NCBI GenBank assembly: GCA_964434115.1
Contig: CAYSSX010000007.1
Span: forward strand, 82,734-146,733
DNA length: 64,000 nucleotides
Source of the DNA: an uncultured bacterium
GTDB taxonomy: Bacteria > Omnitrophota > Omnitrophia > Omnitrophales > Aquincolibacteriaceae
Reading direction: 5' to 3'
Of the stretch, positions 2 through 64,000 are shown in pieces. Under the pieces are notes generated by a model. The model was not told the DNA's origin, did not search any database, and saw nothing but the letters and a program-made list of their open reading frames with translations. Position 1 is the stretch's first letter. Each line of letters begins with the position of its first letter. Position numbers and translations under genes: made by a program.

Positions 2-3000
2 ACGACAACGGTCACGGGAACTCTCGGCGACACGGTTACGCTTCGCCGCAAAGACTACGTGATTGAAGATCAGGGCGGCGGCAAGATCGGTCTTGTTCGG
101 TCCTTCGCGTCCCGCTCTACGGATCAGATCATGCTCAACGGTGTCCGCTACGCGGTGTTCACCGAGTCGGACGGCCGCATCCGCCTTTCGGATGGCGTGA
201 ATGACCCGAGCTATTCCAACCCGGAACAAACCGAAATCAAGGTGGCTGGCGTCACGTATCAGATTTTCCGTGATGAAGCGGGCAAGCCTCTTTTCTTCGA
301 GAAAGACGTTTACCTGGCGCATCAGCTCGTGACTTTGGACGGCCAGGAATACTGGGTGAAGAAGCAGCCGGACGGATCGGTTCAGCTCTCCACCGAGATT
401 TTGACTCATGGCAGCTGGCGTCCGGCGGAATCTGAAAAGACCTCCAGCATTTTCCAGTACAAAACCAAGACCTACGAAATCCGTGAAAACGGTGACGGCA
501 CGATCACCGTGAAGGGTGAAAACCTTGAAATCCGCAGCAACCCGGTCAACAAGAAACTCGTTTTTGACGGCCACCTCTGGGACACAGTCAAGGATGCTCA
601 GGGCCATTGGGTTCTGAGAAACGACAGCGCCAGCATCAAGGCGGACGGCAAGCTGATGGAATTTGCCGGAGACATTTACCTGGTCCGTGAGGACGGCAAC
701 GGGTTCTTTACTTTCACCGACCTGACCACGACCACCAGCAACAAATGGGTGCTTACGGATTATGCCGTGACCGATCTTGCGGATACGGTGGAATCCGGTG
801 ACAACGGTGATTTTGGCGATGGCGAGTACATGGGCGGCATGGGCGGAAGTTCCACCTGGGCCAGAGAGTCTGGAAGCTATGTGTCCTTGGACGGCGTTAC
901 CTACCTCTGGAAATACTCCAAGGGCACGCAGGGTTATTCCTGGGGCACGGACGCTGAGAAGTGGACCTTCAAGATTTGGAAACAGGGGGATACGGAACCC
1001 TCTGATCCGGGCCAGGGCTACGGCGGTTACGGCAACCAGCCGCCCGCGGATCCTCGTGTGTTCCAGGGAACCGGGGATGTGAAATTCAACTACGCCTGGG
1101 ATGAAAAGGTTCAGTACGAAGTGATCTACGATGCGGCCAATCACGCGCTCACGCTGGATCCCAAACAATTCCTGTTCTATGCCGGCAAAGATGCCATTAA
1201 GCTCGGCGATCATGTTTACGCGCTCTCCGGAGACACGCTGGCGAACCTTCGTCTGTATGTCCGCGATTTTGTGAACCAGGATTCTGTTGAACGGAAGCTT
1301 ACGGTCGGTACCTTGACCATGCCTTACACGGTCACGCTCGACAGCGCCACGGGAAATTATGTTCTCAATGTAATCGATTCGGAACGGTCCATGACCTACT
1401 CCAGCCGCAAAACCGGCAATCAGGTCTGGATCGCGATTCGCGGTGAACGCTATAACGTTACAGGCCTTCTGAGGCCCGATATCCCCAACTTCCAGCTCGT
1501 CCTCCAATCCGGCGCAGCGGCTGATTCCATGGATGTCAGCGGCGAAGTCATGACGATTGAAAACAACTTCTACCGCTACGGCCTGAAATCCGGAAGCTCC
1601 GACACGTACGAAGTCACGGACGGTAAAACCAAGCGCGAAGTCAAGGCCGGGGAAACACTTGAATTCAACCAGCGCATTTATCTGGCGTCCGACGATCCGG
1701 ATATGAAGATCATCTTCACCAGCAGCGAGACGATAACCGACACCCTTCGCGTTAAAATCGTCTCGACCCAAAGTGATGATGGTGAAGGCGGACACATGGG
1801 GATGGGCGGCTACGGCGGCTACACCACCAGCGTGGTTTATACCATCCTTGAGCAGGAAGACGGCAGTCTCAAACTGACGGACGGTACCAACAGCTACACC
1901 AGCGATGTCCAGAAGACATCAATCACGATCGGCAGCAAAAAATTCTTTATTGATGTGCTGCCGGAAGGAGGCTATCAGTTTGTCGAATCCGATGAAAACG
2001 TGCCGTTTGTCAAAGAAACGCTGACTTACAAGAGTGACGCGCGCACCAAGAAGATCTCCGTCAAGGGCGTGCACTATGATGTCATCGTTGATGCGAACGG
2101 CGATGTGCGTTTCATTGAAGAGCATGAAGCTTCGGACTCTCTCGGAACCCCAGCTGTGAATATCGCAGGCCGCAAACTGGCTTATTCCTTTAATGGCAGC
2201 CAGGTGATCTTTACGGACGGCAAAGTGACCTTTAAGAGTGATCTTACGGGCAAAGAGATCCGGATCGATAACCGCCTTTACAACATCACGCGCCAAGGCG
2301 ACACCGTGACGCTGGCCGAACCCAATCAGCCGTATCTTCAGACCATTGACCTGGACGGCGTGTCCTGGCTTGTCCGCGAAACGCCGGATGGGCGCGTGGC
2401 GTTTGAGAACCCCGGGAGCGGCGAATCCTATGTCAGCAATGTCAATAATGAACTTGTGAAGATCCGGGATGCGGGTTATGAAATCCAAAAAGTGGACGGC
2501 AAGTATCAGCTTAAGAAAGTAGCGCGTTCAAGCCTTACGATCGCTTATGAAGCCATCCGCCTCCGCAACCAAACTTATCTTGTGGACCAGCAGAACGGGG
2601 TCTTTGCGTTTACCCGGCTTTCTGACAAGAAGGTCTTCACCAGCGATCCGGTCTCTGGAAAGGTGCAGATCGACGGGATGCTTTACAACATTGAAACCCT
2701 TGAAAACCAGGTCCGCCTGCATTTGGCCACGACGGAAATCGGCCGTGAGATCGACAATGAAGTGCTTTATGTGAACGGAACACTCTATGAAGTGATTCCA
2801 AACGAGGACGGCAGCGTCGAATTAACCGATGGCGTCCATTCATACACAAGCGATGCCAAGAGCGGCAGCATCTGGCTCGGTGACATCCAGGCAGAAGTGA
2901 AAAAGGATCCCATCAGCGGCCGCTGGACCTTGACGGTTCCGACTGCGGCCAGCATCAAGCGTGGTGATCAGGTGGTGGCTGTGGAAGGCGTCCAGTATTG

Positions 3001-6000
3001 GGTCCTTCGTCTTGAAGGCGGGGCCTATGAGGTCACAGACGGGGAAACGGGCAAGAAATACACTAGTGAAATGGAATCGATCGACGGTGCCGTGGTGCCT
3101 GTGGTCAATCTTCCGATTGGCAAATACCGCATTCTGGATGACGAAGACACCAAGGAAATCAAACTTATCGAGGCAACGACCAAGTTCTATTCCGACAAAG
3201 ATTTCAAAATTATGCTGGATGGCAAGGAATACACGGTTGGCCGCAACGAAAGCGATTTGAGTTTCTACCTGGATGACGGCAAGCACCAGTACTATGCGGA
3301 TTCCAATGGCAAGGTCCGCGTCGGCGATAAGGTCTATGATATTACGGAAATGGAAAAACGCCGCTTGAATCATCCGGAAGTGGTGAAGCGCGCGGACATG
3401 AACGGCGATGGCACTTTTGATTCCGCGGATTCCGATGAACTGACCCGCCTGTCCAGCCATTACAAGGATGTCAATCAAGACGGCATTGTGGACATGGAAG
3501 ACGTCAACTCGCTCAACAAGATCATCAATTATGTCAAGGACGGCCAGATCCAGGACACGAACGGCGACGGTCAGTACACGACATCCGACTTCCTGAAGTT
3601 CGATGTCAACAAAGACAAGCAGATCAACTTCCGTGACGCCAACGCGCTCAACCAGGTTGTGCAGAACCGCTACGACATCAACCGCGACCGCAAGACGGAT
3701 GAAGGCGATCTGGCCTTCTTTGATGAAGTGGTGGGCAAGATCCGCGACGCGCAGTCCCAGGGCGTAGACGTACAGCCGGATGCGCTGGCCCGCATGGACG
3801 TCAATAATGACGGCCAGGTCAGCCGCAAGGATCTGGAAGAAATGGGCAAGCTCTTTGGCGAGGACGGGAAGCTGAAGAACCTCGACGTCAACGGCAATGG
3901 CAAGACCGGGGACGACGAAAAGCGTATGCAGCAGATTTTGGAAGCCCAGGCCCTCGGCGTGACCAAGTCGGAAATTGATCACGCGGATGTCAACCGTGAC
4001 GGCGTGGTCAACAACCAGGACCAGTCGGTGTTAAGCGAGTCGATCCGCAAATACAGCTCGCTCAAGGGGCAGGCGGATTACGACGGTAACGGCAACCTTG
4101 ATTTCATGGATCTTCTCGAACTGCAGAAGACCGCCAATGATGTGAAACGCAACCAGATGATGAATCCCAAGCTTCTGGACCAGGCTGATGTGAACGATGA
4201 CGGCCGCGTGGACGACCGCGATGTCCGGTTCCTTGATCAAACGATCCGCAGCTACAAGGATGTCAATGAAGACGGCGTGGTGGATGCCGAGGACGTGGCC
4301 CTCATCTCAAAAGTCCTCGACTATCTCAACAAAGAAATTGTCAGCTCAAAGGAAATCCGGCTGGACAACGCAGACGGCCTGGTGAGCAGTATCATCGGCC
4401 AGGAAGCAATTGCCCTGGACGGCGTCCGTTATGTGGTTTCCCTGCATCCTTCCGGCGCGTACCTGTTTACGTCATCCGAAGGGGTTTATCAGGCGTACAA
4501 GGACATCCAGATCGTCAATATCAAGGACAAGATTTATGACATTTATGTGGATGACAAGGGCAATGTCCGCCTTCAGGAACAGGGCAACCGAAACCATGAA
4601 AGCGCGCATCTTTCCGACTTTGTCATCACCGTCGGCGGCAAAGAGTACGATGTTCTTTTTCAGCCCTATGAACGCTACCTTTTCCGCGACCGGGACGGCA
4701 AAGAAATCGTGAGCGGGTTTGACGATGTCGTCACTCTCGACGGACATGAATTCATTTTGGAACGCGATGTCAAGACCAAGCGCGTGAAGCTGGTTGAAAC
4801 CGCCTATCGAAGCCGCCGGATCGCGGATGAAGTGATCAAGGTGGAGGGGATCGAATATTACGTTGTTAACAATTTCGACGGCACCTACACCTTCAAGAAG
4901 GACGGCTTTGAAAAGCGCTCTGATCTGGACAGCAAGCGTGTTTCTCTCGAAGGCACAGTGTATGAAATCCATGAAGATCCTTTCTCAGGTCAAATGACGC
5001 TTATTGAAGCTCATTCCATCAGCCAGGTGGTTGCGGATCAAGTCATCCGCATTGTGGGCACCGGGTATAACCGCAGCCTTTCGGATTCCTTTTCCGAATA
5101 CGGCCCGGGCGGCAACTACGGCGGCTACGAGGGCGCCTTCTTGGGCGGCAATTACGGAGGAACGCCGCAGGACCAGCAAAATGACAGCCCGATCGTGATG
5201 GATAACACCTACCATGTTCTGGAAAATCTGGACGGCACTTACACCTTTATAGACCTCAAGACCCAGAAAGAAATCAAGGGTTCCAAAATTGAAAAAGGTT
5301 ATGGCGGCCAGGAAACGGGTTTTGCCGGGACATTTTCCAAAGCGATCGGCAAGGTGACTTTGAACGGCGCCGACTTCTTTATTTATCCGGACTACGAGCA
5401 GGGCGGCATTTATCTTGAACAGGCCACGGACAAATCCAGCTCTGACCTGACGGTCGGGGCCACGGCCGGCAAGATCTCCTTCCTCAAAGGCGGCAAATCA
5501 GTGACCTATGACTGGACGTATGATTCCTCAACGGGTGAGATCTCGATCAACGGCCAGTGGGTCGACCCGAAAAACAATACGGTCCTGGTTGACGGCATGA
5601 ACCTTCTCATCAGTTTTGACCCGGAACAGGGCCGTCTGATTATGAATCGGGATTACCTGAGAAGCGCCCGCGTGGCCGACCAGCGGATCCGCCTTGACGG
5701 GATCCGTTATGACGTCGAAGAGAACGCAGACCAGAGCTACACCTTCTTTGACGGCCACGAAAACTATACGAGCAATGCGGTTTCCAAACAGGTGAAAATC
5801 CGCGGCAGCATTTACGACATCATTGCGAACACGTACACCGGAACCGTGACTCTCGTAGAGCAGTTCTCCAAGCGCAGCGAGCATGTTTTTGACCAGGTCA
5901 TCCAGCTCGGAGAGCAGACGTTTAAAGTACTCCGTAACCGTGATGAACGGGTCTATGACTTTGTGGATGAACAGGGGCAGGTGCTTAAGAGCAATGCGAT

Positions 6001-9000
6001 CATGGAATGGCGTGACCGTGAAGAGAACTTTGACAATGACTCGGCGCCGAAAGGCTGGACGCCGGAGGCTGGTAAATGGGCGGTCCGCGGGGAGATGCTC
6101 GAGGCGGAACGCCAGGGTGTGCGTTCTTACGGCAACACCGGCATCTACACGGACGCCGACTTTGAGCTGTCGGTGGATATGGCCATGGAACAGCTGACAG
6201 AAGTCCGTGACAGCGATCTGAACAAAACCTGGGAATCGTCGGTGCTTTTCAACGCCACGGACCGCTTCAACCACTATGCTTTCCGCATTCTCCGTAACGG
6301 CGATAATACCACCATCGGTCTATTCAAGATGGTGGACGGCCGTGAGTACCGCCTCGCGGAAACAAAGCCGTTCCCGTTTGAGTTCGTGGCCGATGATTTC
6401 TACCGCCTTAAGATCACCTCCAAGGACTCCGAGATCACGGTATCTCTTAACGACAATGTTGTCTTTGAAGTCACGGATCATCTCTACAGCGAAGGGTATG
6501 TCGCGTTTTCAAACCTTCGCGCCGACGCCCAATTTGACAATTTGAAAGTTCGTTACGAAGTGGCGACCGGAGAAATCGCCGCAGTGGATATCAACGGCCG
6601 GAAATTCCTCATTAACGAAATCAGCCTGACCCAGGGCGATCAGTTTGACCTGAATGCCGACGGGCGCTTTGACCGAAAAGATGCCGATGCGCTTCAGAAG
6701 GCCATGTCGGACAATGGAATGCTTCCTAATCAGCAGCAGTTCTGCTCCCCTGGCATGGAAGGTTGTGAGGGCTATGAATCAGGCGGTTATCCCGGCATGG
6801 GTGGTTCCATGGGTGCCGGCGGTTATAACTTCGGAGGCAGCGGTGGTGAAGGCTTTAATTACGGCGGTATCGGCGGCGTGAACTCTCCGGGCAACCAGCC
6901 GAAATCCAAGATTGACGTCAACGGAGACGGGGTCGGCGATGCCAAGGATCTTGAATTGATGCAGAAAATTCTCGATGCTGACCGGCGCGGCGAGATTGTT
7001 CAGCAGAAGGAGTATCAGAAGGCGGATGTCAACGGCGACAATGTTGTCAATGATCTTGACTGGAAAGCGATCGAAGAATCCATGAGCAAGGTTGCCAACG
7101 GCGACGTGAACAACGACGGCAATGTCGACTTTAAGGATACTGACGCGATCCGCGGAGTGGTGCGTAAGAACCAGATCGGTGTTACGACCAATGAAACACG
7201 CGCCGCCGACCTTGACCATAACGGTCTCATTGACGGAAACGATGTCGTTGCATTGAAAAACACCCAAAACATTCTGTATCAGATGGACCTGAACTTTGAC
7301 GGAAAGGTGGAATTGAGCAAGGAACTGCAGGCTTTTGATAAGGCCCAAGAGTTCTATGATCTTGGCTCCAAGCTGGATCCTCTTCAGATGATGAAGGCTG
7401 ATATCAACCAGGACGGCATGGTTGATCAGGCCGACCGGGCGATTTATCAGGACTTGACCCGTCAATGGGACGACAACGGTACGACCCGCAACCTCTATGA
7501 TCTCAACAACGACGGAAAGGTCGACTCACAGGATCTTTCCCGCCTTGATATGATCAAGTTTGGACAGGATTTGAAATTGACCGACGATGAAAAACTCGTC
7601 GGGGACGTGAACCGGGACGGCAGCATCAATGGCCGTGACCGCGACCTCTATGACAGCATCTATCAAAACAACCTGGTCCTTGACCTCAATGGCGATAATG
7701 CGGTTAACGGTCTTGACCGCGATGTCCTCAACGCCCGTATGACGGCCATGCAGAACCAGGGAATCCCGAACCCCGGTGAACTGGAGCGCGCGGATATCAA
7801 CCGTTCGACAAGCAGCTCCGACCCGCGCGACCGCATTACATCGGCCGATGCCACGATGCTTTCATCCCTTTACAACAACGTTTTCCGCAACGGTGCCGGC
7901 GATTTACGCGACCTTGACGGAAATGGAACGCTGGATTTGAAAGACCTTGTCCGCCAGCGTGAGATTCAGGAATTTGAAACGTACGGACTTGATGACGCTA
8001 AAGTCAACCAGACGCTTTGGGACGTCAATAAGGACGGAAAGATTGATGATCAGGACCTTATCGACCTGCGCGCCTCAATGCAGAATTACGTACAACATGA
8101 TATTAACGCGGACGGCAAGGTGGATCAGTCGGATATTTCCCTCATGGATCGTATGATCGACCATCAGCGTCTGGATTACACCGTTAAGCCGGAAAACCTG
8201 GAAACGGCGGATATCAATAAAAATGGTTCTTTTGATCTTGACGATGTGCAAGCGTTTGAAAACAACCTGCCTTCCTATCAGGATGTCAACGGCGACGGCA
8301 AGGTTAATAAATTTGATGCCCTTGACGCCACGAATGCGATGAATATTCAGAACTCAGGGTATATCGCGCGGATGGAAAATGGATCCGCGGTCTATGAAAA
8401 GGTCACCGCGGATGTTCTGCACCGCGCGGACTTCAACCAGGATGGTTCGTTTGAATCTCTTGATGTGGCCCTGCATTCCAACGCCATCAAGAACAATTCG
8501 GACGTGACCGGCGACAATGTTGTCGATGCTAACGATTGGCTGCGCCTGAAGCAGTATTCCAGCTGGGGCGTGGGTGCCGCGCAGGTCCGGCGCGCGGACG
8601 TCAACGGCGACGGCGTGATCACGGACAAAGACAGAACAGACCTTCTTTCCGGAATCAGCGGGCATGACCGCGCGGATGTGAACGGGGACGGAAAAGTGGA
8701 CGCCAGCGACCTGCAGAGCCTGCGTACGATGGTCGAAGCCGTAAAACTCAAAGTCACGGCCCAGGATATTTTTGCGGCCGACATTCAGAAAGACTTCATT
8801 ATCGACACGCTGGACCTCAACAAACTTCTGAAAGCCATCAATGAACTGCCGCTTTACGACATTGACCAGAACAACCTCGTTAACCATCTCGATCTGGATA
8901 CACTTTTCCGGGTTTGGGGAACAAGCCCGATTGATCTTCTGACCCAGCAGCTGGGACTGATCCAGGGCCTGCCGGCTCAAAGTGAAGCGAGCGTGGATTA

Positions 9001-57000: not shown

Positions 57001-60000
57001 AGTGACAGCCATTGCCCGTGCTGTGGCAACGTACGGAGTCGAACGAGCTCAGGAGATTGTGCAAGCTCTTCAGACCATCGCTGCCCAGGGAACCGTCGTG
57101 GTTGTGACAACTCAGACCGTGGATCTTGTTCAGCAGGTAATTCTTGACCGGGCCGCGAAACAGGAGAATGTTGCCCAATTGGCGCAGAATGCGGCCCTTG
57201 CGGTTCAGATCCTTCAGCAGGCGAATGTGACTCTTGGCGCGCAGGCGATTCCCATTACACCGGCGCTCATCAGCGGCGTGGTGGATGTGATTCAGCGCGT
57301 GGATGTGACCGTGACGGCTGCGAATCTTGCCCAGGCGGTTGCGGCGATTCAGCTGGTGGTGCCTGCGGGAACAACTATTACGGCTGCTCAAATCGCCGCG
57401 ACCATTGTTGCCATTCAATCCGGTGTGTTGGTGCAGGATATTACTCTCGCCAGTATTCAAGCCGTTCAGGCGATTCTTGACTCGAAAGACAAGGCGATTG
57501 ATGTCACAAAGATTACTGCTGTGGACATCAAATCTGTCGAAGCGATCCTTGTTGTGAACCCGGCGTTCCAGATCACAGCCGCGAGCATTGCCGCGGTCAA
57601 TATTCTGATCGAAAAAGGTCTTGCGGTTCAAACCGTGGAACGTATTGAAGCCGCGGTTCAGCTTGCGGCTGCGAAAATAGATATCGTGGAAGCCAGTGTT
57701 TTGGCCGCGGTCCAGGTGATCAGCTTTGGCTTGAAGGTCGATGTTGCGACTCTTCAGGCGCTGACTGAGGTCACGGGCGGCCTGACCCAGGTCACTGCGA
57801 CCAATATTGCGCTTGTGGCTGCGATTATCCGTTCAGGGGTTGCGGTCACGGACCTTGCTCAGTACATCGTGGCCAATGGCAGCGGTATTCAGATCATTAC
57901 CCCGCCTGCCGGGACAGCACTTAACATCCAGATGGGAAATGTTCAGGTCCAACTGCCGGCGGACACGGTGTTCCAGGTCAATCAAGCGACCGGTGAATTG
58001 ACCTATAAGGTTCCCGATATTGGCGGTCTTGTTACGATCGGCAGCCATTCTCAACTGGCCCTTGCCGGCGGTACTCAGGTGACGGTCAACCGCAACGGCG
58101 TGATGACTTATCAGGTGGCCGGAACCACGACCCAGATCGGCGGAGTAACGCTTGCGGCCAACACGACGATTACCGTGAACTCTCTTGGAGCCGTGACGGT
58201 GACCGGTACCAATGTGATTAATCTTGCTGGAAATACCGTGACTGTGACAACGATTAATGTCACGGAGCAGGGAGCTGTTCAGTACACGCTTCCCGCCGCG
58301 ATTCTTGTCAATGGTCTCGTGGTTCCGGCAGGAACCACGGTTTCTCAAACCGCGACAACTGTGGAATACACTGCCGTAGCCGACCTTACAGTTCCGGTCA
58401 ACGGCCAGAATGTTGTGCTTCCCGCCGGGACAATCTTTACGCTTTCAGAAGCAGGCCTTGCGATCAAGGTTTCGGCTGTGGAACAGACGATTACCGTGGC
58501 GGGTGAAACCGTGAAGATTGCGGCCAATGCCCAAGTCCTTGTGCTGGGTCAGGAAGGCGTGAAAGTGGTTGAAGGCACTGTGACTCTCGGCAGTGTGGTG
58601 GTTCAGCAGGGTGTGACGTTTACGGTCAGCACGGTGAATGGAACCGCGGCCGCAGTGGTGACGATCGCGGGCCAAGCCGTGACCCTGACGAATAATGTGC
58701 AGGTTTCTGTGGTGAACGGCGTTACGACGATTCAGGGTACGAATGTCGTGGGACAGGTGGTGGTAGGCACAACGGTTTATCAGGTCGCGGCCGGCACTCA
58801 GCTCACTTATACCGCTCAGGGAGCTCTTAAGATTGAGAGCGCTGCCGGTACGGTCATGGTCACCGAAGGCACCCTCAAGATCGAAACCGGCGGCCAAGTG
58901 GTGGAAGTTGCGGCGGGCGTTCAGATTGTTAAAACCCAGGACGGTATTTCCTTTGTCAATACGGGAGCAGCTGCCACAGTTGTCAAAGTCGGGACAGGCA
59001 TTTTGGATGTGTCCGGGTCTGGAAGCATCCGCGTGGACAGCAATGGCAATGTGATCGTCACAGGCGGGAATGTCAGTGTCACGGGACCGACAGCCGTGAC
59101 CATGCGTTTTGGTTCAGTGACGACAGCGATCAGCGCGGGAACTCTGGTCAATGTTAATGCTCAGGGGACGGTTCGGATCACGGCGGCCAATTCCCAGATT
59201 GCGGTCGGCAGCATGGTGGTTCCACTTGCCACAGGCATCAGCGTTTCGATTGATACGCAAACCGGCAAAGTGGCCGTGATTTCTGAAACCGCAGGAACCG
59301 TACTTAATGTCGGCGGCACTGTGATTAACACCACTCCGGGTGTCACGGCAGTGATCAACACTCAAAACGGACAGGTCGAGCTTACGGCTGTTTCCGCCGC
59401 TGCGGTCGTAACCGTCGGCGGAACGGTGGTGAATGTCAACCAAGGCAGTGTGGTTCGCGTGGATACGGCAGGCGCTGTCACCCTGGTTGCCGGAACCAAC
59501 GGCTCTGTCATTCAGGTTGCTGGCACTTCGGTGGTGGTCGGACAAAGCGGGGTGGTCAATATCGACGTTCAGGGTAAGGTTTCGATCGCGGCCCCTGTGA
59601 ACCGTACTTTGGACGTGACGGTTGGCACTACGGTTTATACGGTTGGCGCGGGAGTTCAGACCGTTTTTGAAAATAGCGTTCCGTCCTTCCATGCGACCGT
59701 GGATTCGAATGTGGTTGTCAATGGCGTCAAGGTGGAGGCCAAGGCCGGCACGGTCTTCGCTGTGGATGCCGCTGGTTCTATCAATGTTACGACCGGCGCC
59801 GTGGCCGTGGCTTCGGGTCCTGCCTCTGTGACGGTCACGATTCTGGGGCAGGTTTATGAGCTCGCTCAGGATTCCCGGATCGAAGTCAATACGCAGGGTG
59901 CTGTAACTCTTTCACAGGGCACTGTGGCCATGGTCGTGGATGTGAACAAGGCTCAAACGGTCAATGGCGTGACTTATACCGCCACGCAGGCCGCCACAAA

Positions 60001-63000
60001 GATCGAAGTTACTTCGACCGGCGGTTTGGCTGTGACAACCGGTGCTGTGACGATTGCCCACGCGGCTGCTGCGGAAGTCCGGGTGCTGGATATCAATGGT
60101 CTGGGGTACCGCCTCACGGGCGGCTCCACGATGACGCTGGACGCCGCCGGGAATGTGACCGTAACCGGCGGATCCATCTCCATCGCGAACCCCGGCAGTA
60201 CGGCTGCGGTGCGTACGGTAAATATCAACGGTGCTCTTTACACAGTCAATGGTAATTCCGCCCTTACGGTTCAGCAGAATGGAAGCATCCGTCTTGTGAA
60301 TGGAACTGTTACGGTTCAAAATGTTGCGGCCCAGGCGAAAACTGTGACGGTGGGTACGGCCGTGATTACAGTTGCCGCGAGTGAACGGGTCATTTTGACG
60401 GAAGGCAAGAATATTGAAGTTACGGGAGTCTTCACGCTTGAGAATACTTCCGCCACGGAATCTGTCACGGTTGTTTCAAACGCCCAGCTGATCACCGCTG
60501 CGGCAAGCTCTGCGGTTCGTGTTCAGGAAGTCGCAATTGGCGCCAGCGGAACCGTGGCTCAGAAAATTACGGTTGTTTCCGGAACCGCCACCGTGGTGAA
60601 CACGAGCACGTCATCGGTGCACTCGGTGGTAACGGCAGACGGTTCGATTTACCAGTTGGCCCCGGGCGCGGTCATGACGATTGATACGGCCAGCGCCATC
60701 ACCGTTACCGAAGGCCGCGTGGAACTCACGGCGGGCCGCGGAGGCTTGATCCGCTACGGCCAGTCGGTCATTCAGGTTGAAAAGGGAACTGTCATTGAAG
60801 TCATAAACGACACCGTGACCATCGCCGCATCAAGCAATGTCCGGACAGTGACGGTGGGCACAACCGTTATGCAGGTTGGTGCGGGTGCGGTCATCACCAC
60901 GGACCTCGCCGGTAACGTGGTTTTGAATGTCCAGGACATTACAACGATTCAAGCCAATGGCGTTCAGATTGAAGCCGGAGTTGGGACTCGGGTCAATGTG
61001 ACGTCCACAGGCGTTGTCACTATGGTCACTGGCGTGGGTGCCGCGGCGGTGACCGTGAACGGAATTCAGGCCCAAGTGGGTGTGGGCGCAATTATTTCTG
61101 TCGATGCTCAGGGAGTTCAGGTTCTTTACCCGGCCGGCCAGATTCTTCTGACGGTGAACGGCCAGACCTTTACGGTGCCGGCCCAGGTGGGTGTGAACTT
61201 TGCGGGTGGTGCCGTGACACTGGAATCCGGCGACCGGACCCGCACGGTTTCCTCCGCGAGCCTGACTTACACAATCGGCGCCAACAGCAGTCTTACTATT
61301 AATAACTCAGGCGTTTTGACAGTTAAAGCGGGTCAGGTCACGATTTCAGGCGGCAGCGCGACGGTTCAGTATGGAAGCGCCACAGTCCGTGTTACCGGAA
61401 CTGTGGTGGCAGCGGTGGACACGGTTCGTCCCACGACTTCAGCAGCGGTGACCTATACCCTTGGAAACGCCACGCTGACGGTTGCTGCAGGTCTTGATGT
61501 TGTTGCTGGCGGCGTGATCCGCACCACAGCCTTGACTCAGACCGGTACGTTGACTGTGGCTGGAACGCAGATCCTTACGAAGGCCGGCGCAGCGGTGGAA
61601 GTCAATGCACAGGGAGTCTGGACGGTTCAGGCTGGTGCTTTGGGTGCGGCAGTGGTGATTAATGGTGTTACGACTCAGGTGACGGCCGGCGGCGTAATCA
61701 CGGTCGACAATCTGGGACATATTTCAATCGTTTACCCGCAGACACAGACTCAGGTGGTTTTGGTTGGCAGCACGGTTGTTGAAGCTGCGGCGGGTGCCCA
61801 GGTCACCGTGAATAACGGTGTTGTTAATGTGGTCGCACAGCAGGCCTCGACGGTCACGGTGAACGGTTCCGTTTATCAGGTGGCGGCGGGAACCGAAATG
61901 ACGGTCAATGCGGCCGGCGTTGTCACGCTCACAAAAGCAGGCTCGGTGACAGTTGTCACGGGTACCGTCAATGTGCAGGTTGGCGCCAATGTGATTACGG
62001 TTCAAAACGGGACAACCCTGACACTGAATGCGAGCGGCAATTTCACGGTTGCCTCTGCGGCCAATGTTACGCTGATCGTTAACGGTGTCACGGTCACAGC
62101 TGCTGCCGCGAATATTAATGTGACGGCGCAGGGCCTTGTGGAAGTGACTGATACAGTGAATCAGCAAAAACAGATTTTTGGCTTTGGCCAGTCCGTCACA
62201 GTCCCTGCCGCAGCCCAGGTGAGCCTGGTCAATGGCCAGCTCTCAGTTCAGGTTGCTCAGACAGCGGGCAATGTGGTGGTTGGAGCTTCGACTCTTGCCG
62301 CGGCGGCAAACACTTCATTCCTTGTGAACAGCTCAGGCCAGATCATGGTGCAGACCGGTCAGCTGACGGTCGGCAGCACAACGGCCGCGGGCGTCAGTTT
62401 TGCGTATGGAAGCACGGTCATCAACGCTCGTACAGGAACCGTTGTCAATGTCAACAGTCAGGGAGTTTCGACGATCACACCCACAGCAGCGGTGACCGGC
62501 GGCCTGACCGTTGTCAACCAGGGCGTGACCGTACGGCTTGGAGCAGGCGTTGCCTTAACGGTCGACATTGCCGGAGTTGTTGTTGCTCAAAGCGGAGCCA
62601 ATACCGTTCTTTCGCTGAACGGCCAGCTTGTGGAAGTCGGACAGGGAAGATCGATTACGGTCACTGAAAATGGAACGGCCATCATTGCGGCTGGACCTCA
62701 GACAAGAATTTTTACAAATACGGGATTAACGCTGACTCAACTCGAAGATGCCCGTGTGACAGTTACGGCCCAGGGCATTGTGGTTGAAGCGGGAACAACG
62801 GGTGTACGCGCCAGCAGCGTCCTTTTCCAGGGTCTCACGTTCAGCGCCGGAACCATCCTTCGTTTTGAAAACAACACGTCGGTTGTGGAGCTTGCTCAGA
62901 ATGCGGTTATGACCAAGGGCGGAGCGGTTATTACGGCAGCCGAAGCAACACGTTTGACCTTTACGGAAGCCGCGGTTACGTTGCAAAGCGGTAATGTAAC

Positions 63001-64000
63001 GGTCACCAATTCTCCGGTTAATTTTGTGGTGGGCGCGACCGTGTTCGAAGCTCAGGTCGGCACAAAAGTTTCAGTCGACAGTCTCGGTGTTACTCAAGTC
63101 CAGGTAGGCACAGTGCCTGTGGTCCTTTCTACTGCGAATAACACCACTGTGACACTTGCCGCCGGATCCCAATTCTCAATCGATCAGGCAGGCGTCGCTG
63201 TGGTCACTAATACCGCTGCAGGCACGGTCGTCACATCCGGCTCTACGGCTGTAACGCTGGGTGCGGGAGCGAATCTTTTGGTTGCAGAACAGGGCGAGGT
63301 GATTGTCACGGCTGCGGTAGCGACAACGATCACCAACGGCACACAGTCCTTTGTCCCAGGCGTTGGAACAAGCCTTACTGTTGGCGTGAATGGAGCGGTT
63401 ACTGTTTCGACATCAACACAAACCTCCACGGGAATCTTGAATGGCATGACCACAGTCATGGCCGCCAACACCTCAATCAATATGGCCGCCAACGGCAGCA
63501 TCAATCTTGTCCGCGGTGCGATCCAGGTGAAAACAAATGCTGTCAGCGGCGTGCTGACGCTGGGCGCGAATACTTACCAGGTCAATGCGAACACAACCTT
63601 GAGCGTGAACGCTGCCGGCGTTCTTACGGTGACGGCAGGCAGTGTCACGGTCAGCCAGGGTGCTGTTACGGTTCAGATGGGTACAAGCAATGTTCAAGTT
63701 CTTGCCGGCAGCACGATTAGTGTAGATGCTTCGGGAATGGTGAAAGTTACGACGACACAGGGAACAGTCCAGCAGACCGCGACGGGAGTTACCGCCACGC
63801 AGAGCGGTGTGAGCGTGACGGTGCCGGTCGGTTCTGCTGTCAACACGACAACCGGCATGATTCAGGTCACCGTGAATCAGAATACTGATGCTGTCATTAC
63901 GATGGGCAGCGTGACGCGTACGATTCAGGCGCAGTCATCATCCATCGACATTCTGGTCCTCGGCGGAGTGGCTCAAATCATTGCCAACGATACGGCAACG
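2..64000 (+). CDS. Single uninterrupted ORF in frame +2, 21,333 sense codons, open at both window edges. Internal fragment of a giant (>21,333 aa) multidomain membrane/surface protein gene. Partial at 5' and 3' ends.
   Basis: Manual codon-by-codon translation of frame +2 from nt 2 to nt 64000 (last codon 63998-64000 'acg') gives a coherent protein throughout, with Ca-binding loops, TM helices, repeat families and helical low-complexity, and no in-frame stop. Independent support from the ORF track: frame +2 has many in-frame ATGs (for example 131-133), yet no + ORF in the track is in frame 2 mod 3. All + ORFs start at coordinates divisible by 3 (777, 2547, 2961 ... 59622), so frame 2 cannot contain a stop. 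All long - strand ORFs (55385..57631, 43616..45367, 28514..29956, 2840..3982, 23990..25063 and others) end at coordinates = 1 mod 3, which is the codon-aligned antisense frame of a real GC-rich CDS. Confidence 0.9.
806..853 (+). repeat. Gly/Tyr/Met-rich low-complexity island 1 ('GDFGDGEYMGGMGGSS')
   Basis: Direct translation. ggc/atg/tac-rich nucleotide stretch. Confidence 0.7.
1004..1050 (+). repeat. Gly/Tyr-rich low-complexity island 2 ('DPGQGYGGYGNQPPADP')
   Basis: Direct translation. Confidence 0.7.
1774..1830 (+). repeat. Gly/Tyr/Met-rich island 3 ('DDGEGGHMGMGGYGGYTTS')
   Basis: Direct translation. Confidence 0.7.
3385..4340 (+). repeat. Tandem array A of dockerin-type (F-hand) Ca2+-binding repeats. 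11 loops of form D-[VILM]-N-x-D-G-x-[VI]-[DN]-x-x-D, each followed by an amphipathic helix.
   Basis: Loops read directly: DMNGDGTFDSAD, DVNQDGIVDMED, DTNGDGQYTTSD, DVNKDKQINFRD, DINRDRKTDEGD, DVNNDGQVSRKD, DVNGNGKTGDDE (nt 3884-3919), DVNRDGVVNNQD, DYDGNGNLDFMD, DVNDDGRVDDRD, DVNEDGVVDAED. Post-loop helices such as 'DVNSLNKIINYV' and 'DVALISKVLDYL' match the dockerin repeat architecture. Asp rather than Glu at loop position 12 favours dockerin-like over canonical EF-hand. Confidence 0.75.
4380..5990 (+). repeat. Beta-hairpin G-x-x-Y repeat modules (block 2)
   Basis: 'LDGVRYVVSLHPSGAYLF', 'VGGKEYDVLFQPYERYLF', 'LDGHEFILERDVKTKRVKL', 'VEGIEYYVVNNFDGTYTF', 'LEGTVYEIHEDPFSGQMTL', 'LDGIRYDVEENADQSYTF', 'IRGSIYDIIANTYTGTVTL'. 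Same unit as block 1. Confidence 0.5.
5095..5180 (+). repeat. Gly/Tyr-rich island 4 ('EYGPGGNYGGYEGAFLGGNYGGTPQDQQ')
   Basis: Direct translation. Confidence 0.7.
6020..6565 (+). other. Concanavalin A-like lectin/glucanase-fold domain, resembling the DUF1080 / 3-keto-disaccharide-hydrolase-like family (~180 aa).
   Basis: 'FDNDSAPKGWTPEAGKWAVRGEMLEAERQGVRSYGNTGIYTDADFELSVDMAMEQ ... NHYAFRILRNGDNTTIGLF ... DFYRLKITSKDSEITVSLNDNVVFEVTD ... GYVAFSN ... AQFDNLKV'. This follows the G-W-x-V-x-x-G-x-L ... Y-x-D-F-E-L ... FDN[LI] landmarks typical of that family. Assignment from motif memory only, no search run. Confidence 0.45.
6640..8900 (+). repeat. Tandem array B of dockerin-type Ca2+-binding repeats (~21 loops), interrupted near its start by Gly/Tyr island 5.
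   Basis: DLNADGRFDRKD, DVNGDGVGDAKD, DVNGDNVVNDLD, DVNNDGNVDFKD, DLDHNGLIDGND, DLNFDGKVELSK, DINQDGMVDQAD, DLNNDGKVDSQD, DVNRDGSINGRD, DLNGDNAVNGLD, DLDGNGTLDLKD, DVNKDGKIDDQD, DINADGKVDQSD, DINKNGSFDLDD, DVNGDGKVNKFD, DFNQDGSFESLD, DVTGDNVVDAND, DVNGDGVITDKD, DVNGDGKVDASD (nt 8675-8710), DIQKDFIIDTLD. Loops sit at roughly 30-35-aa spacing, each followed by a short helix. Confidence 0.75.
6742..6900 (+). repeat. Gly/Tyr/Met-rich island 5, the longest ('CSPGMEGCEGYESGGYPGMGGSMGAGGYNFGGSGGEGFNYGGIGGVNSPGNQP'). Contains a C-x5-C pair.
   Basis: Direct translation. Confidence 0.7.
14135..14222 (+). repeat. Gly/Tyr/Met island 6 ('SGGGMGGYGGMGGYGGMGGYGGEEGGEY') with a nucleotide-level 18-nt tandem triplication (14147-14200).
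   Basis: Units 'ggtatgggcggttatggc' (14147-14164), 'ggtatgggcggttacggc' (14165-14182), 'ggcatgggcggctacggc' (14183-14200). They differ only at synonymous positions, and each encodes GMGGYG. Confidence 0.8.
16831..17155 (+). repeat. Four additional dockerin-type Ca2+-binding loops embedded inside the helical stalk.
   Basis: 'RADINLDDRVNAKDVFDL', 'IDINNDGKRDMLDKAIWQHL', 'GDVNADGLLTDRDVGLYREYM', 'VDVDGNGVVNAADVAAINGFVLG'. Confidence 0.65.
22200..24300 (+). other. Beta-rich globular module(s) of unknown fold, following the stalk.
   Basis: 'GFSFKFTDSVGVKDLRNNTVYLWKPGTGTENWYDLS ... SYKPMVVVNSNFEPWTGRVVLESRDETGAPVVSVDGKSYKITGSSTANGVRTYTVQIPPSSTVPPASLGTLTLDVTSAPFDGQF'. Alternating pattern, Pro/Gly turns, no helix-forming runs. 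Confidence 0.4.
24800..29900 (+). other. Mixed alpha/beta modular region carrying sparse paired-cysteine motifs, consistent with small disulfide loops in extracytoplasmic domains.
   Basis: Cys pairs read directly: 'SCNAGQTMCVYN' (~25165-25200), 'SCTPCQGANG' (~25255-25285), 'SFCGANKDQSCLL' (~26965-27005), 'DPCVAPACNP' (~27965-27995), 'FCLEKACQAGG' (~28175-28210), 'FDCTKDPWKGQCHDP' (~28800-28845), 'LCPMFTLPTSDDCVMMDDDG' (~29215-29275). Cys is otherwise nearly absent from the protein. Confidence 0.5.
30000..34330 (+). other. Second predominantly alpha-helical region (~1,450 aa)
   Basis: A/L/E/Q/R/K-rich helix-favouring composition, for example 'ARRTEARVEIEQDILAGLQKDADQYRTLQKNLETTRDKITDELKLIDLQLL', 'LDARARLAQADANIARAKEIYDATLLDYERAKEMARGADDILAQYELE'. 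Confidence 0.5.
34330..41800 (+). repeat. Beta-rich modular region (~2,500 aa) that re-uses the G-x-x-Y hairpin unit and carries paired cysteines.
   Basis: 'VLIGGQWYRVTYSLKGNTGMMTITGDDV', 'VEINGQEYLIFGDGLGYSIASKTGFYFEV', 'VKMGGYPYRVKISLDGSNNVIVRYSQI', 'VMLDGKVYTASLSSMVNGTLTIGTLKL', 'VTIDGKKYKSRVFKNDDRGVLTLDMT', 'IIDGMKYSVSIRTGLDGQTLMTITT'. Cys pairs: 'LLCTPAAGDTCTFAQTCPAAGCPGG' (~36060-36135), 'SCTSGDGGVECTKAF' (~36520-36560), 'WDCEQGNVDCSQPP' (~38480-38515), 'QCAGADKKQCGD' (~40693-40728). Confidence 0.5.
42095..42240 (+). other. Isolated ~48-aa hydrophobic segment with glycine-zipper character. Candidate helical hairpin or re-entrant membrane segment.
   Basis: 'ALFGYFLNMTMLAMSFPVMMGLAGGLSGLGVGAAIGEAIMEGALIAP' contains G-x-x-x-G-x-x-x-G spacing (GLAGGLSGLGVGAAIG). 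Flanked by polar sequence. Confidence 0.45.
42880..43000 (+). repeat. Pro/Gly/Ser/Thr-rich flexible linker
   Basis: 'WGPPPSSSGGGTGGPGSPGGSTTTTPPGGTMTGSGSAGSG', followed by the Cys pair 'SCNGNPNCKV'. Confidence 0.75.
48810..49160 (+). repeat. Trp-rich ~11-residue amphipathic repeats immediately N-terminal to the membrane core
   Basis: 'VWDYVLKPVVD/YLTYVKDFWVE/QWNNYVVPAAN/WVWNNAIAPWA/VPLWNNVVKPA/VETVGGWIKEG/AAWVGKQIVAG/...SWINWAGQQVVAAWNWFAS'. Trp and Pro/Asn recur with ~11-residue periodicity. Confidence 0.5.
49185..50725 (+). other. Polytopic transmembrane block 1 (about 10-12 predicted TM helices)
   Basis: Consecutive ~20-aa uncharged hydrophobic runs: 'ILHTLAWGAIIAGSLLIAPSWFIYAAVGAGVLAAVA', 'MAIAVAIGVGIALIALAIAGAIFFAPLLFAAAGTLSFGASILATVLTVSLLTMTLAGIILLVGGIAAY' (nt 49558-49765), 'AVIMATYTAAILLVGNILGV', 'FYLSLALNLALIGGFVGAAFALGGVGFLLLIPALLIGAATLAGANFFTMTGLKFSGVLGLAADVILFIASM', 'WIFVKAMVAQTLSTGSFALSLRLWMNMMF', 'LLTFLHTMPLGPALFLLGPMGLYLG'. 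These are separated by short polar/charged loops (K/R-rich, for example 'KKAVIM', 'HDYKRIMGKNN'). Confidence 0.7.
50730..51570 (+). other. Soluble ~280-aa loop between the two TM blocks
   Basis: Polar/amphipathic sequence with few long hydrophobic runs: 'ISQKAIQMGSQNFLANFIGQGLKGFLDEVFVEGIGGDVTELL ... TADYQQLITNMGSADLDAVAGLFKDAKDFQAFV ...'. Confidence 0.5.
51580..52075 (+). other. Polytopic transmembrane block 2 (about 5-6 predicted TM helices)
   Basis: 'FRGVLAIGATLAASFLTGGLALGLVLGGMVVAQALVFAALH', 'LSLGNFMGLFAFGVVAGGLVTAITLATGGTFLGIAGAIGAAATF', 'FFSAFLNQAGFVFSPLILPLLSLSGTMLTALAGAAGFVTSLLGGLGFLVGLTGIF'. Confidence 0.7.
52110..56880 (+). repeat. Array of about 80-90 short (~16-20-aa) helical repeats, roughly L-x-x-[LIV]-[LIVA]-x-[VIL]-F-x-x-[LIV]-P-N-[LI]-x-x-x-D. 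Candidate alpha-solenoid of unrecognised family.
   Basis: 'LVQVFAGLVDFANIKVED / LQNLVLVFSSVVDLSD / LQNLTDFVTVFAGNVTDIAQ / LQKLISSFTNLNVPIVN / VVQVFLGLPNLQGLNFVD / LLTVFTTIPNLSNTD / LVDIFNAFSTLGTFQG ... LHMIQIAQVFAGIPNLDSTK / VLALLSVFMSIPSLQTEAN / LLQLAQIFAGVPGVGLVD / IATVFLNLPNLSEAAV ...'. This continues without interruption for ~1,590 aa. Confidence 0.65.
56900..57870 (+). repeat. Ala/Ile/Val/Gln-rich low-complexity repeats of form (I/V)-T-x-A-x-I-x-A-V-Q-A-I-L
   Basis: 'NVAQLAQNAALAVQILQQANV', 'ANLAQAVAAIQLV', 'ITAAQIAATIVAIQSGV', 'ITLASIQAVQAIL', 'ITAVDIKSVEAIL', 'ITAASIAAVNILIEKG', 'IEAAVQLAAAKIDIV'. Confidence 0.55.
57870..64000 (+). repeat. C-terminal Thr/Val/Gly/Ala/Asn/Gln-rich beta-strand repeat region (>2,040 aa in window, continues beyond nt 64000). 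Candidate beta-solenoid / fibrous adhesin-like shaft.
   Basis: Nearly charge-free alternating pattern, for example 'TVTVGTTVYTVGAGVQTVFEN', 'VTVTGGSISIANPGSTAAVRTVNINGALYTVNGNSALTVQQNGSIRLVNGTVTVQNVAAQAKTVTVGTAVITVAAS', 'TVTVNGSVYQVAAGTEMTVNAAGVVTLTKAGSVTVVTGTVNVQVGANVITVQNGTTLTLNASGNFTV'. Degenerate ~30-45-aa periodicity with recurring 'G-x-V-T-V', 'V-N-G', 'A-G-T' elements. Confidence 0.6.

Follow-up and report, generated by a model that had tools for sequence, protein, structure and literature searches.

What kind of gene can occupy a 64,000-nucleotide (nt) stretch of a bacterial contig from end to end, and what would its product do? This question is raised by positions 82,734–146,733 of the contig CAYSSX010000007.1 (assembly GCA_964434115.1), hereafter the window. 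An earlier note, made from the letters alone, had described the whole window as one stop-free open reading frame (ORF) and as a fragment of a still larger giant gene, and both statements were borne out by the present analysis. Re-translation of frame +2 (nt 2–64000) gave 21,333 codons with 0 stops, whereas the other five frames contained 168–1,257 stops. About 890 stops were predicted from the base composition, and the probability of finding none is about 1e-395.

A frame open across 64 kb

The following feature covers practically the entire window:

Nt 2..64000, + strand: single continuous coding frame, an internal fragment with the gene start and stop outside the window (0 stops, codon-position signal)

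The coding signature of this frame is uniform. Analysis of sixteen 4-kb bins showed that G at codon position 1 accounts for 0.35–0.46 in frame +2, compared with 0.10–0.32 in the other frames, and that the guanine-plus-cytosine (GC) content of third codon positions (GC3) is 0.57–0.68 in frame +2 in all of the bins. The overall GC content is flat as well (0.51–0.58 across bins). The ORF listing omits ORFs that are open at both ends, and thus the window-long ORF is not shown in it; the 13 ORFs of at least 250 amino acids (aa) that it shows on the minus strand are shadow ORFs, because the 168 stops in frame −1 equal the exact count of TTA, CTA and TCA sense codons in frame +2. Searches of the window for tRNA genes and Rfam families did not find any.

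It is confirmed that the window is an internal piece of a real giant gene, which codes for protein over at least 21,333 codons. In a related contig, designated L001 and described below, the frame stays open for at least 10 kb further upstream. Judging from this relative, the full gene would comprise at least about 24,700 codons if the 3,326 extra upstream codons of L001 apply. The product, with at least 21,333 aa, belongs to the 'large' class (at least 10,000 aa); the limit of the 'giant' class is 30,000 aa, and the gene ends lie outside the window.

An open frame of this length could also be produced by assembly, if several shorter in-frame genes had been mis-joined or collapsed. The metagenomic origin of the sequence would allow this, and Dockerin-type giant genes, the class discussed below, tend to be broken up at repeats (West-Roberts et al. 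2023, bioRxiv 10.1101/2023.11.21.568195). Against such an artefact, the window has no long or near-identical DNA repeats: the largest is one 60-nt tandem repeat encoding GGM/GGY, direct repeats do not exceed 47 nt and 82% identity, and no repeat is present that would drive a collapse or a chimeric join. GC, GC3 and the codon-position signal are uniform, and a random junction keeps the frame in only one case out of three. In addition, L001, an independent assembly, is collinear in the same frame over the first 11.5 kb and has a further 10 kb upstream, and a second relative, L002, has the same order of blocks. An assembly artefact is therefore very improbable. Note that Gly/Tyr/Met-rich low-complexity linkers of the (GGM/GGY)n type are found at nt 14143–14202, 1773–1819 and about 6770–6900, the first of which is the sole tandem DNA repeat of the window.

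Relatives, lineage and class of the gene

A scan of JGI (Joint Genome Institute) metagenomes with the first 500 aa revealed a sole relative, the unclassified metagenome contig Ga0209573_1000118 (L001; 212,387 bp), whose frame is open throughout the 21,470 nt retrieved. Window aa 8–3830 are collinear with L001 aa 3334–7156, with 66% amino acid identity and 24 gap columns. The proportion of differences was 0.73 at synonymous sites (pS), which are saturated, and 0.22 at nonsynonymous sites (pN); dN/dS was 0.06–0.16 where computable within aa 8–3830, and the identity at codon positions 1, 2 and 3 was 75, 81 and 43%, respectively. Because dN/dS is low, the protein encoded by the first 3,830 codons (~3.8 thousand aa, kaa) is, on this comparison of sequences, under purifying selection. 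The L001 gene runs at least 3,326 codons upstream of the equivalent of the window's first codon. This upstream part (L001 nt 2–9979, aa 1–3,326) contains Thr/Gly/Ser/Tyr-rich beta repeats of about 100 aa with the pattern 'GPDG.SY.W.F...NW...'; Pfam gave no match for it, and no start codon region is in view.

A scan of GTDB genomes based on the alignment of the window and L001 led to a sole locus, JBAYFK010000010.1 (L002), named 'MAG: Candidatus Omnitrophota bacterium isolate SO_2016_GW1_1' (MAG, metagenome-assembled genome). It is open from end to end (5,198 aa; GC content: 51%) and contains the domains Dockerin_1, TSP3_bac, Laminin_G_3 and an RHS repeat. Three blocks of L002 are collinear with the window, namely aa 3334–4120 with window aa 980–1645 (27% identity, 185 bits), aa 4431–4585 with 1815–1981 and aa 4882–5196 with 2305–2572.

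Neither the N-terminal 500 aa nor the membrane core nor the beta array of the window gave a match in an index of 5.8 billion proteins, and a full HMMER search of 1.84 billion cluster representatives with the membrane core gave 0 matches. The index did not return the L001 protein either, despite the 66% identity and the presence of the contig in JGI metagenomes. Apparently these giants are missing from it, and since the L001 protein was not returned, the empty index searches say little about rarity. No match was found for the N-terminal 500 aa among genome contigs, nor in scans of viral contigs (IMG/VR) or in tblastn searches against plasmids and phages; a plasmid or phage origin has no support. 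About 85% of the protein is without a homologue detectable by these sequence searches.

As for the lineage, the gene likely belongs to Omnitrophota. The only named relative, L002, is from this phylum, has a GC content of 51% and shares collinear blocks with the window, and dockerin-rich giants with a downstream membrane anchor are a published class of Omnitrophota. It is less probable, if still worth considering, that a gene of the same kind comes from another phylum (Planctomycetota, Verrucomicrobiota, Elusimicrobiota or similar), where dockerins, DUF1080 and genes for more than 10 kaa also occur. In favor of this are the GC content of 54%, which is on the high side, the identity to L002 of only 27%, and the occurrence of proteins of at least 10 kaa in other PVC (Planctomycetes–Verrucomicrobia–Chlamydiae) phyla; in Baltic samples, 7 proteins with 30 kaa or more belonged to Verrucomicrobiota.

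Candidatus Omnitrophota are ultra-small, host-dependent or predatory PVC bacteria. Two kinds of giant proteins have been distinguished in them, the enzyme-rich 'Archaeovorins' and the less common 'Dockerin-type' proteins (West-Roberts et al. 2023, bioRxiv 10.1101/2023.11.21.568195). According to the same work, Dockerin-type proteins contain many dockerin/EF-hand and TSP3 repeats, DUF1080 and discoidin domains, a C39 peptidase, GNAT and a long hollow antiparallel beta helix reminiscent of Rhs; the N-terminal majority of the chain is without membrane helices, an anchor is located near the C-terminus, and SecA-like (DEAD/preprotein-binding) domains follow the anchor. Type II secretion-like genes were reported upstream of these loci, and pilZ and sugar importers downstream of them; in the present case the neighbouring genes, like both gene ends, lie beyond the window, L001 and L002. 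A later survey of 18 samples put the number of proteins with 10 kaa or more at 3,650 and that of proteins with 30 kaa or more at 348, the longest having 147,155 aa; 21 of the long proteins contained Dockerin_1, one of them in as many as 15 copies, 'dockerin-bearing' proteins formed class 3, and 80% of the sequence clusters were singletons (Nielsen & Lui 2026, 10.64898/2026.06.07.730766).

The gene in the window is a probable member of the Dockerin-type class of Omnitrophota. Like the members of this class, its product is tens of kaa long, carries many dockerin/EF-hand repeats and DUF1080, has an N-terminal majority without membrane helices followed by an anchor, and consists for the most part of orphan sequence. 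The window also has a long repeat region that was modeled as all-beta and antiparallel and may be compatible with the beta helix of the class, and a collinear relative is present in an Omnitrophota MAG (L002). The novelty claimed for the window by the earlier note was overrated, as the architecture was described in 2023 as that of the Dockerin-type giants, and thousands of Omnitrophota proteins longer than 10 kaa are known by now.

Layout of the chain

The modules of the chain are given below in their order in the window; aa positions were converted into nt positions as start = 3 × aa − 1 and end = 3 × aa + 1.

Nt 2..3301, + strand (aa 1–1,100): beta-rich modules I with the theme 'GxxYxV...DGxYxF' and internal repeats (607–764 similar to 923–1081)
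Nt 3374..4336, + strand (aa 1,125–1,445): dockerin/EF-hand Ca2+-loop array I (Pfam Dockerin_1; nine D.[DN].[DN]G loops)
Nt 4349..6001, + strand (aa 1,450–2,000): beta-rich modules II, paralogous to modules I and collinear with L002
Nt 6029..6553, + strand (aa 2,010–2,184): lectin-like domain of LamG fold (Pfam 3keto-disac_hyd, formerly DUF1080, PF06439)
Nt 6734..6901, + strand: Gly/Tyr/Met-rich flexible linker with the first Cys-x6-Cys pair (aa 2,248/2,255), from sequence
Nt 6899..8911, + strand (aa 2,300–2,970): dockerin/EF-hand array II (best Dockerin_1 stretch 2833–2878; 16 Ca-loop motifs)
Nt 8939..15601, + strand (aa ~2,980–5,200): Ala/Leu/Glu-rich alpha-helical rod (Chou–Fasman alpha excess, low Pro/Gly)
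Nt 16889..17143, + strand (aa 5,630–5,714): lone dockerin-like Ca-loop module (three Ca-loop motifs)
Nt 19199..47341, + strand (aa 6,400–15,780): unique mixed alpha/beta sequence of ~9.4 kaa with 19 of the 20 tight Cys pairs
Nt 49184..50149, + strand (aa 16,395–16,716): membrane-helix cluster 1, about 8–9 hydrophobic spans (hydropathy)
Nt 51536..51874, + strand (aa 17,179–17,291): putative divergent CPBP/Rce1-like intramembrane glutamic protease domain (motifs, PF02517)
Nt 51587..52120, + strand (aa 17,196–17,373): membrane-helix cluster 2, about 6–7 spans, including the CPBP-like core (hydropathy)
Nt 52199..56851, + strand (aa 17,400–18,950): degenerate 18-aa repeat 'V(D/N)hhxhFxxhPNLxxxxh' (hidden Markov model (HMM) iteration, autocorrelation)
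Nt 57926..64000, + strand (aa 19,309–21,333): at least 30 beta-hairpin units of ~33 aa, 'VxVnGxxYxVxaGtxhxVdaxGxVxvtxGxVxV', continuing past the window end

The structural outline drawn by the earlier note (a domain mix other than that of the RTX/VCBS-type giants, with poly-dockerin arrays, a helical stalk, a polytopic membrane core in mid-protein, a novel short helical repeat and a beta-repeat region rich in Thr, Val and Gly) turned out to be largely right. The Pfam search returned Dockerin_1 with E 3e-64 over 12 stretches together with EF-hand families, and 31 Ca-loop motifs of the D.[DN].[DN]G type were counted, with 2.2 expected; no RTX or VCBS Pfam family was matched in any window tile. 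The lone module at aa 5,630–5,714 reached 22.2 bits with Dockerin_1 (cut-off 22.9). The DUF1080 match was above the gathering score, with E values of 1.5e-7 in a 5,000-aa tile and 1.1e-8 in a 500-aa tile. Array I is 80–87% and beta modules I are 69–75% identical to L001, and the paralogy of modules I and II was revealed by blastp self-comparison (751–999 similar to 1450–1689; within modules II, 1574–1684 similar to 1858–1969). An HESAH sequence at aa 1,532 was considered as a zincin motif and rejected, since it occupies an inter-module linker position and the paralogous copies do not have it.

The helical stalk had been put at ~4,400 aa. Its predicted helical nature is clear only for aa 2,800–5,200, from the alpha propensity and the heptad lag, and from the end of the rod to about aa 7,200 (nt 21601) the helical character is patchy. 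The strongest autocorrelation lag in the rod region is 7, and a weak match to Spectrin_SYNE1 was found at aa 3874–4020.

Beyond the rod, aa ~6,400–15,800 gave no significant Pfam, NCBIfam or PDB match, and aa 3,000–17,400 are essentially without internal repeats according to the blastp self-comparison. PDB sequence searches with all of the window tiles gave one marginal dockerin match only, and NCBIfam gave no significant match on 85 tiles. The matches to DUF6594 (aa 8,223–8,327; 27.9 bits, cut-off 30), MnmE_helical, flgK and RAMA were regarded as noise after correction for the 85 tiles.

All 40 Cys of the translation are located in 20 tight C-x(2-11)-C pairs between aa 2,248 and 15,774 (nt 6743–47323), whereas random placement gave a mean of 2.2 and a maximum of 12 paired residues in 5,000 trials. 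All of the pairs precede the membrane core, and the final 5,559 aa are Cys-free. In L001, six of the six Cys residues are paired and the pair 2248/2255 is conserved; in L002, none of the 12 is paired. The pairs look like short disulfide staples. Because all Cys are paired, we infer that aa ~2,200–15,800 would fold in an oxidising environment outside the cytoplasm. The complete absence of Cys from the C-terminal part suggests that this part may be extracytoplasmic too. A lone uncharged hydrophobic segment of 41 aa was also noted at aa 14,029–14,069 (nt 42086–42208), ~2,300 aa upstream of the membrane core; it is flanked by Cys pairs on both sides and might either be buried or form a re-entrant hairpin.

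The first strong hydrophobic spans appear at aa 16,395, and upstream of them the segment just mentioned is the only ambiguous one. The polytopic core occupies aa 16,395–17,373, with hydropathy peaks of 1.8–2.75 and uncharged stretches of 21–74 aa in cluster 1, and about 14–17 membrane-spanning helices are predicted from hydropathy for the two clusters together. In cluster 2 and at its border, EESAFRG (17190–96) starts one hydrophobic helix, FAALH (17230–34) ends the next one, and HTAFN (17286–90) is located two helices on. This triple, EExxFRG/FxxxH/HxxxN, follows the CPBP motif definitions given for MmRce1 and myxosortase (PMC11980579). It occurs once in 21,333 aa, and neither 2,000 shuffles of the core sequence nor 200 of the whole protein produced it. 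With a 141-aa segment, PF02517 was the top Pfam family of 24,736 (E 0.0029, profile positions 8–92 of 93); the match was obtained only with segments of at most 141 aa, and tiles of 281 aa or more did not reveal it. A tblastn search with a hand-written CPBP consensus gave no match either, probably owing to the low-complexity filter. These characteristics allow us to lean towards the assumption that the membrane core holds a divergent CPBP domain, a putative protease. The statement of the earlier note that no catalytic motif is recognisable is then probably wrong, given the CPBP/Rce1 signature in the membrane core and the top, though sub-threshold, rank of PF02517.

A putative protease inside the chain raises the possibility of a polyprotein, that is, of one translation product giving several separate proteins after proteolysis instead of one giant fibre. 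The CPBP-like motif and the modular layout with G/Y/M-rich linkers would be in line with this, and cleavage by C39/S8 peptidases was proposed in related giants (West-Roberts et al. 2023, 10.1101/2023.11.21.568195). However, a C39 or S8 domain was not found in the window, no cleavage sites are known, and CPBP enzymes cut beside membrane helices and do not dice soluble chains. We consider a polyprotein unlikely; it would be compatible with a giant contact fibre, our preferred explanation, and does not exclude it.

Downstream of the core, the 18-aa repeat had nine copies at E < 0.01 after HMM iteration, the strongest of them at aa 17,638–18,133; it contains no Cys and had no Pfam match, and the autocorrelation lags of the array are 18, 15 and 33. 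The region between it and the beta-hairpin array (aa 18,951–19,308; nt 56852–57925) is Ala/Val/Ile/Gln-rich with an apparent repeat of ~35 aa, 'I.TA..IAA.V.AIQ.GV.V.D', and has no family match. Modeling of aa 19,981–20,660 of the beta-hairpin array using AlphaFold2, with a three-row alignment of paralogous window segments as input, led to an all-beta model of ~70 antiparallel strands of ~5 residues and no helix. Its mean predicted local distance difference test score (pLDDT) was 56.7, with two blocks at 65–84. The best-probability Foldseek matches of this model were single-layer antiparallel sheets (CPAP G-box, OspA) and Rhs/teneurin shells; Lpt-type sheets were also obtained.

The last of these matches bear on a further explanation, in which the beta-hairpin array, possibly together with the beta modules of the N-terminus, would form a 'beta-taco' chain like that of Lpt or AsmA (TamB) proteins and move lipids or other hydrophobic cargo. 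The hydrophobic groove, anchored in the membrane core, would then serve transfer between an episymbiont and its host instead of mere adhesion. It is consistent with this that TIGR04409 (LptC) was the only NCBIfam match at aa ~149–258 (E 3.2e-4), with a weak Pfam LptC match there, and that a hollow antiparallel beta helix was described in the class (West-Roberts et al. 2023, 10.1101/2023.11.21.568195). Both LptC matches are, however, far below the cut-offs, none of ten 171-aa segments of the array matched Lpt, AsmA or FecR in Pfam, Foldseek prefers the single-layer sheets or Rhs shells, the mean pLDDT of the model is low, and any twisted antiparallel beta-meander can match a jellyroll. The groove and lipid binding are hypothetical, the jellyroll signals may be taken as a weak lead and not as a finding, and such a conduit is improbable.

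Proposed function and comparison with known systems

The preferred explanation, a membrane-anchored contact fibre, can be outlined as follows. A signal at the N-terminus, beyond the window, would direct the chain into the Sec pathway, and at least the initial 16.4 kaa would form an elongated extracytoplasmic fibre. Ca2+ bound in the dockerin/EF-hand loops and the 20 disulfide staples would stiffen it, the helical rod would act as a spacer, and the lectin-like DUF1080, the dockerins and the beta modules would be held out for contact with the glycans that cover another cell. Anchoring would be provided by the polytopic core, and the Cys-free C-terminal part, with its 18-aa repeats and beta-hairpin array, would form a second elongated element. 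By analogy with known enzymes, the CPBP-like site in the core may cut the giant protein itself or a partner beside a membrane helix. Myxosortase cuts before type II secretion takes its substrates to the surface (PMC11980579), and a CPBP-like cleavage step would fit the secretion genes reported beside such giant genes. We infer an adhesin or contact-fibre role, as the literature does for this class.

A bolder version combines the two hints of enzyme and groove into a self-processing intercellular bridge, which would have its own CPBP-type sorting protease and an Lpt/AsmA-like groove drawing host lipids. Here the protease would release the chain from the membrane helices, in the way that MYXO-CTERM proteins are released by myxosortase ahead of type II secretion. 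If this were true, an episymbiont with a reduced metabolism could obtain host lipids by this route; it is a long shot.

Several points weigh against the contact fibre of a Dockerin-type giant as outlined above. Expression as one polypeptide, topology and function are all predicted from sequence, and comparative support covers 18% of the ORF only. No marker gene is present in the window, and the link to Omnitrophota is through one distant relative (L002), obtained in a scan that used two peptide patterns only. No TSP3 (PF18884), discoidin, GNAT, C39 or SecA-like Pfam domain was found in the 64-kb window, and at least 4 kaa follow the membrane core, which within the window is thus not 'near the C-terminus' as in Dockerin-type proteins. 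Regarding the protease, the PF02517 score of 18.3 bits is below the gathering score of 22.4, NCBIfam and PDB sequence searches with the CPBP-like segment gave no match, and its AlphaFold2 single-sequence model (pLDDT 53, predicted template modeling score 0.31) is too poor for assigning a fold. The matches of that model in a Foldseek search against PDB were meaningless. Note that TSP3 may lie in the gene ends beyond the window, and SecA and C39 may lie downstream of nt 64000.

Some of the largest genes known from any organism are the giant genes of Omnitrophota. The window adds to the rarer, dockerin-bearing class a well-supported member with an intact frame and with purifying selection where testable, and its ~85% of orphan sequence shows the protein space hidden in these genes. 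The published basic picture is unchanged: this is a new example of a known oddity and not a new kind of system. What is added is the CPBP/Rce1-like signature, the all-paired Cys and the weak Lpt-like beta-jellyroll signals. CPBP or CAAX is not mentioned in West-Roberts et al. 2023 or Nielsen & Lui 2026, and no Cys pattern is mentioned in Nielsen & Lui 2026, the only one of the two that was searched for it. A putative protease within the anchor, paired Cys that would mark the extracytoplasmic part and the Lpt-like hints offer handles on the export, anchoring and use of such proteins.

A comparison with other known systems places the window as follows. Archaeovorins, the type of which is the giant protein of Velamenicoccus archaeovorus LiM, are likewise giant, membrane-anchored proteins of Omnitrophota with a presumed role in contact with prey or host. 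However, they are enzyme mosaics (glycosyl transferases/hydrolases, methyltransferases, NUDIX, peptidases) without dockerins, whereas the window has dockerins and no such enzyme domains. The CPBP/type II CAAX family (Rce1, PF02517; myxosortase MrtX, PMC11980579) shares the placement of EExxxR, FxxxH and HxxxN with the window. Its enzymes stand alone and are ~250–300 aa long, while the CPBP-like domain forms part of a chain exceeding 21 kaa, and the spacing between the two His residues is 52 residues in the window and 35 in MrtX. The type I dockerins of clostridial cellulosomes share the duplicated Ca-binding loop-helix motif of Pfam Dockerin_1, but there the dockerin is a single C-terminal module of an enzyme; in the window, arrays of 5–8 are found within one chain, and no cohesin partner was seen in the window. 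For the beta-jellyroll of Lpt proteins (LptA, LptC and the N-terminal part of LptD) and for AsmA-like proteins including TamB, no significant profile match was found in the window, and the likeness would come from a model of low confidence. The giant proteins of Chlorobium chlorochromatii CaD3 (36,805 aa) and the RTX/VCBS adhesins of type I secretion systems resemble the window in being very long and Ca-binding, with a proposed role in holding two cells together. They are repetitive, whereas the window has no RTX, VCBS or haemagglutinin repeats, its aa 3,000–17,400 are unique, and it carries, unlike them, a polytopic membrane core in mid-chain. With its more than 21 kaa, ~13 dockerins and orphan sequence in the remainder, the fragment has the typical look of the Dockerin-type giants.

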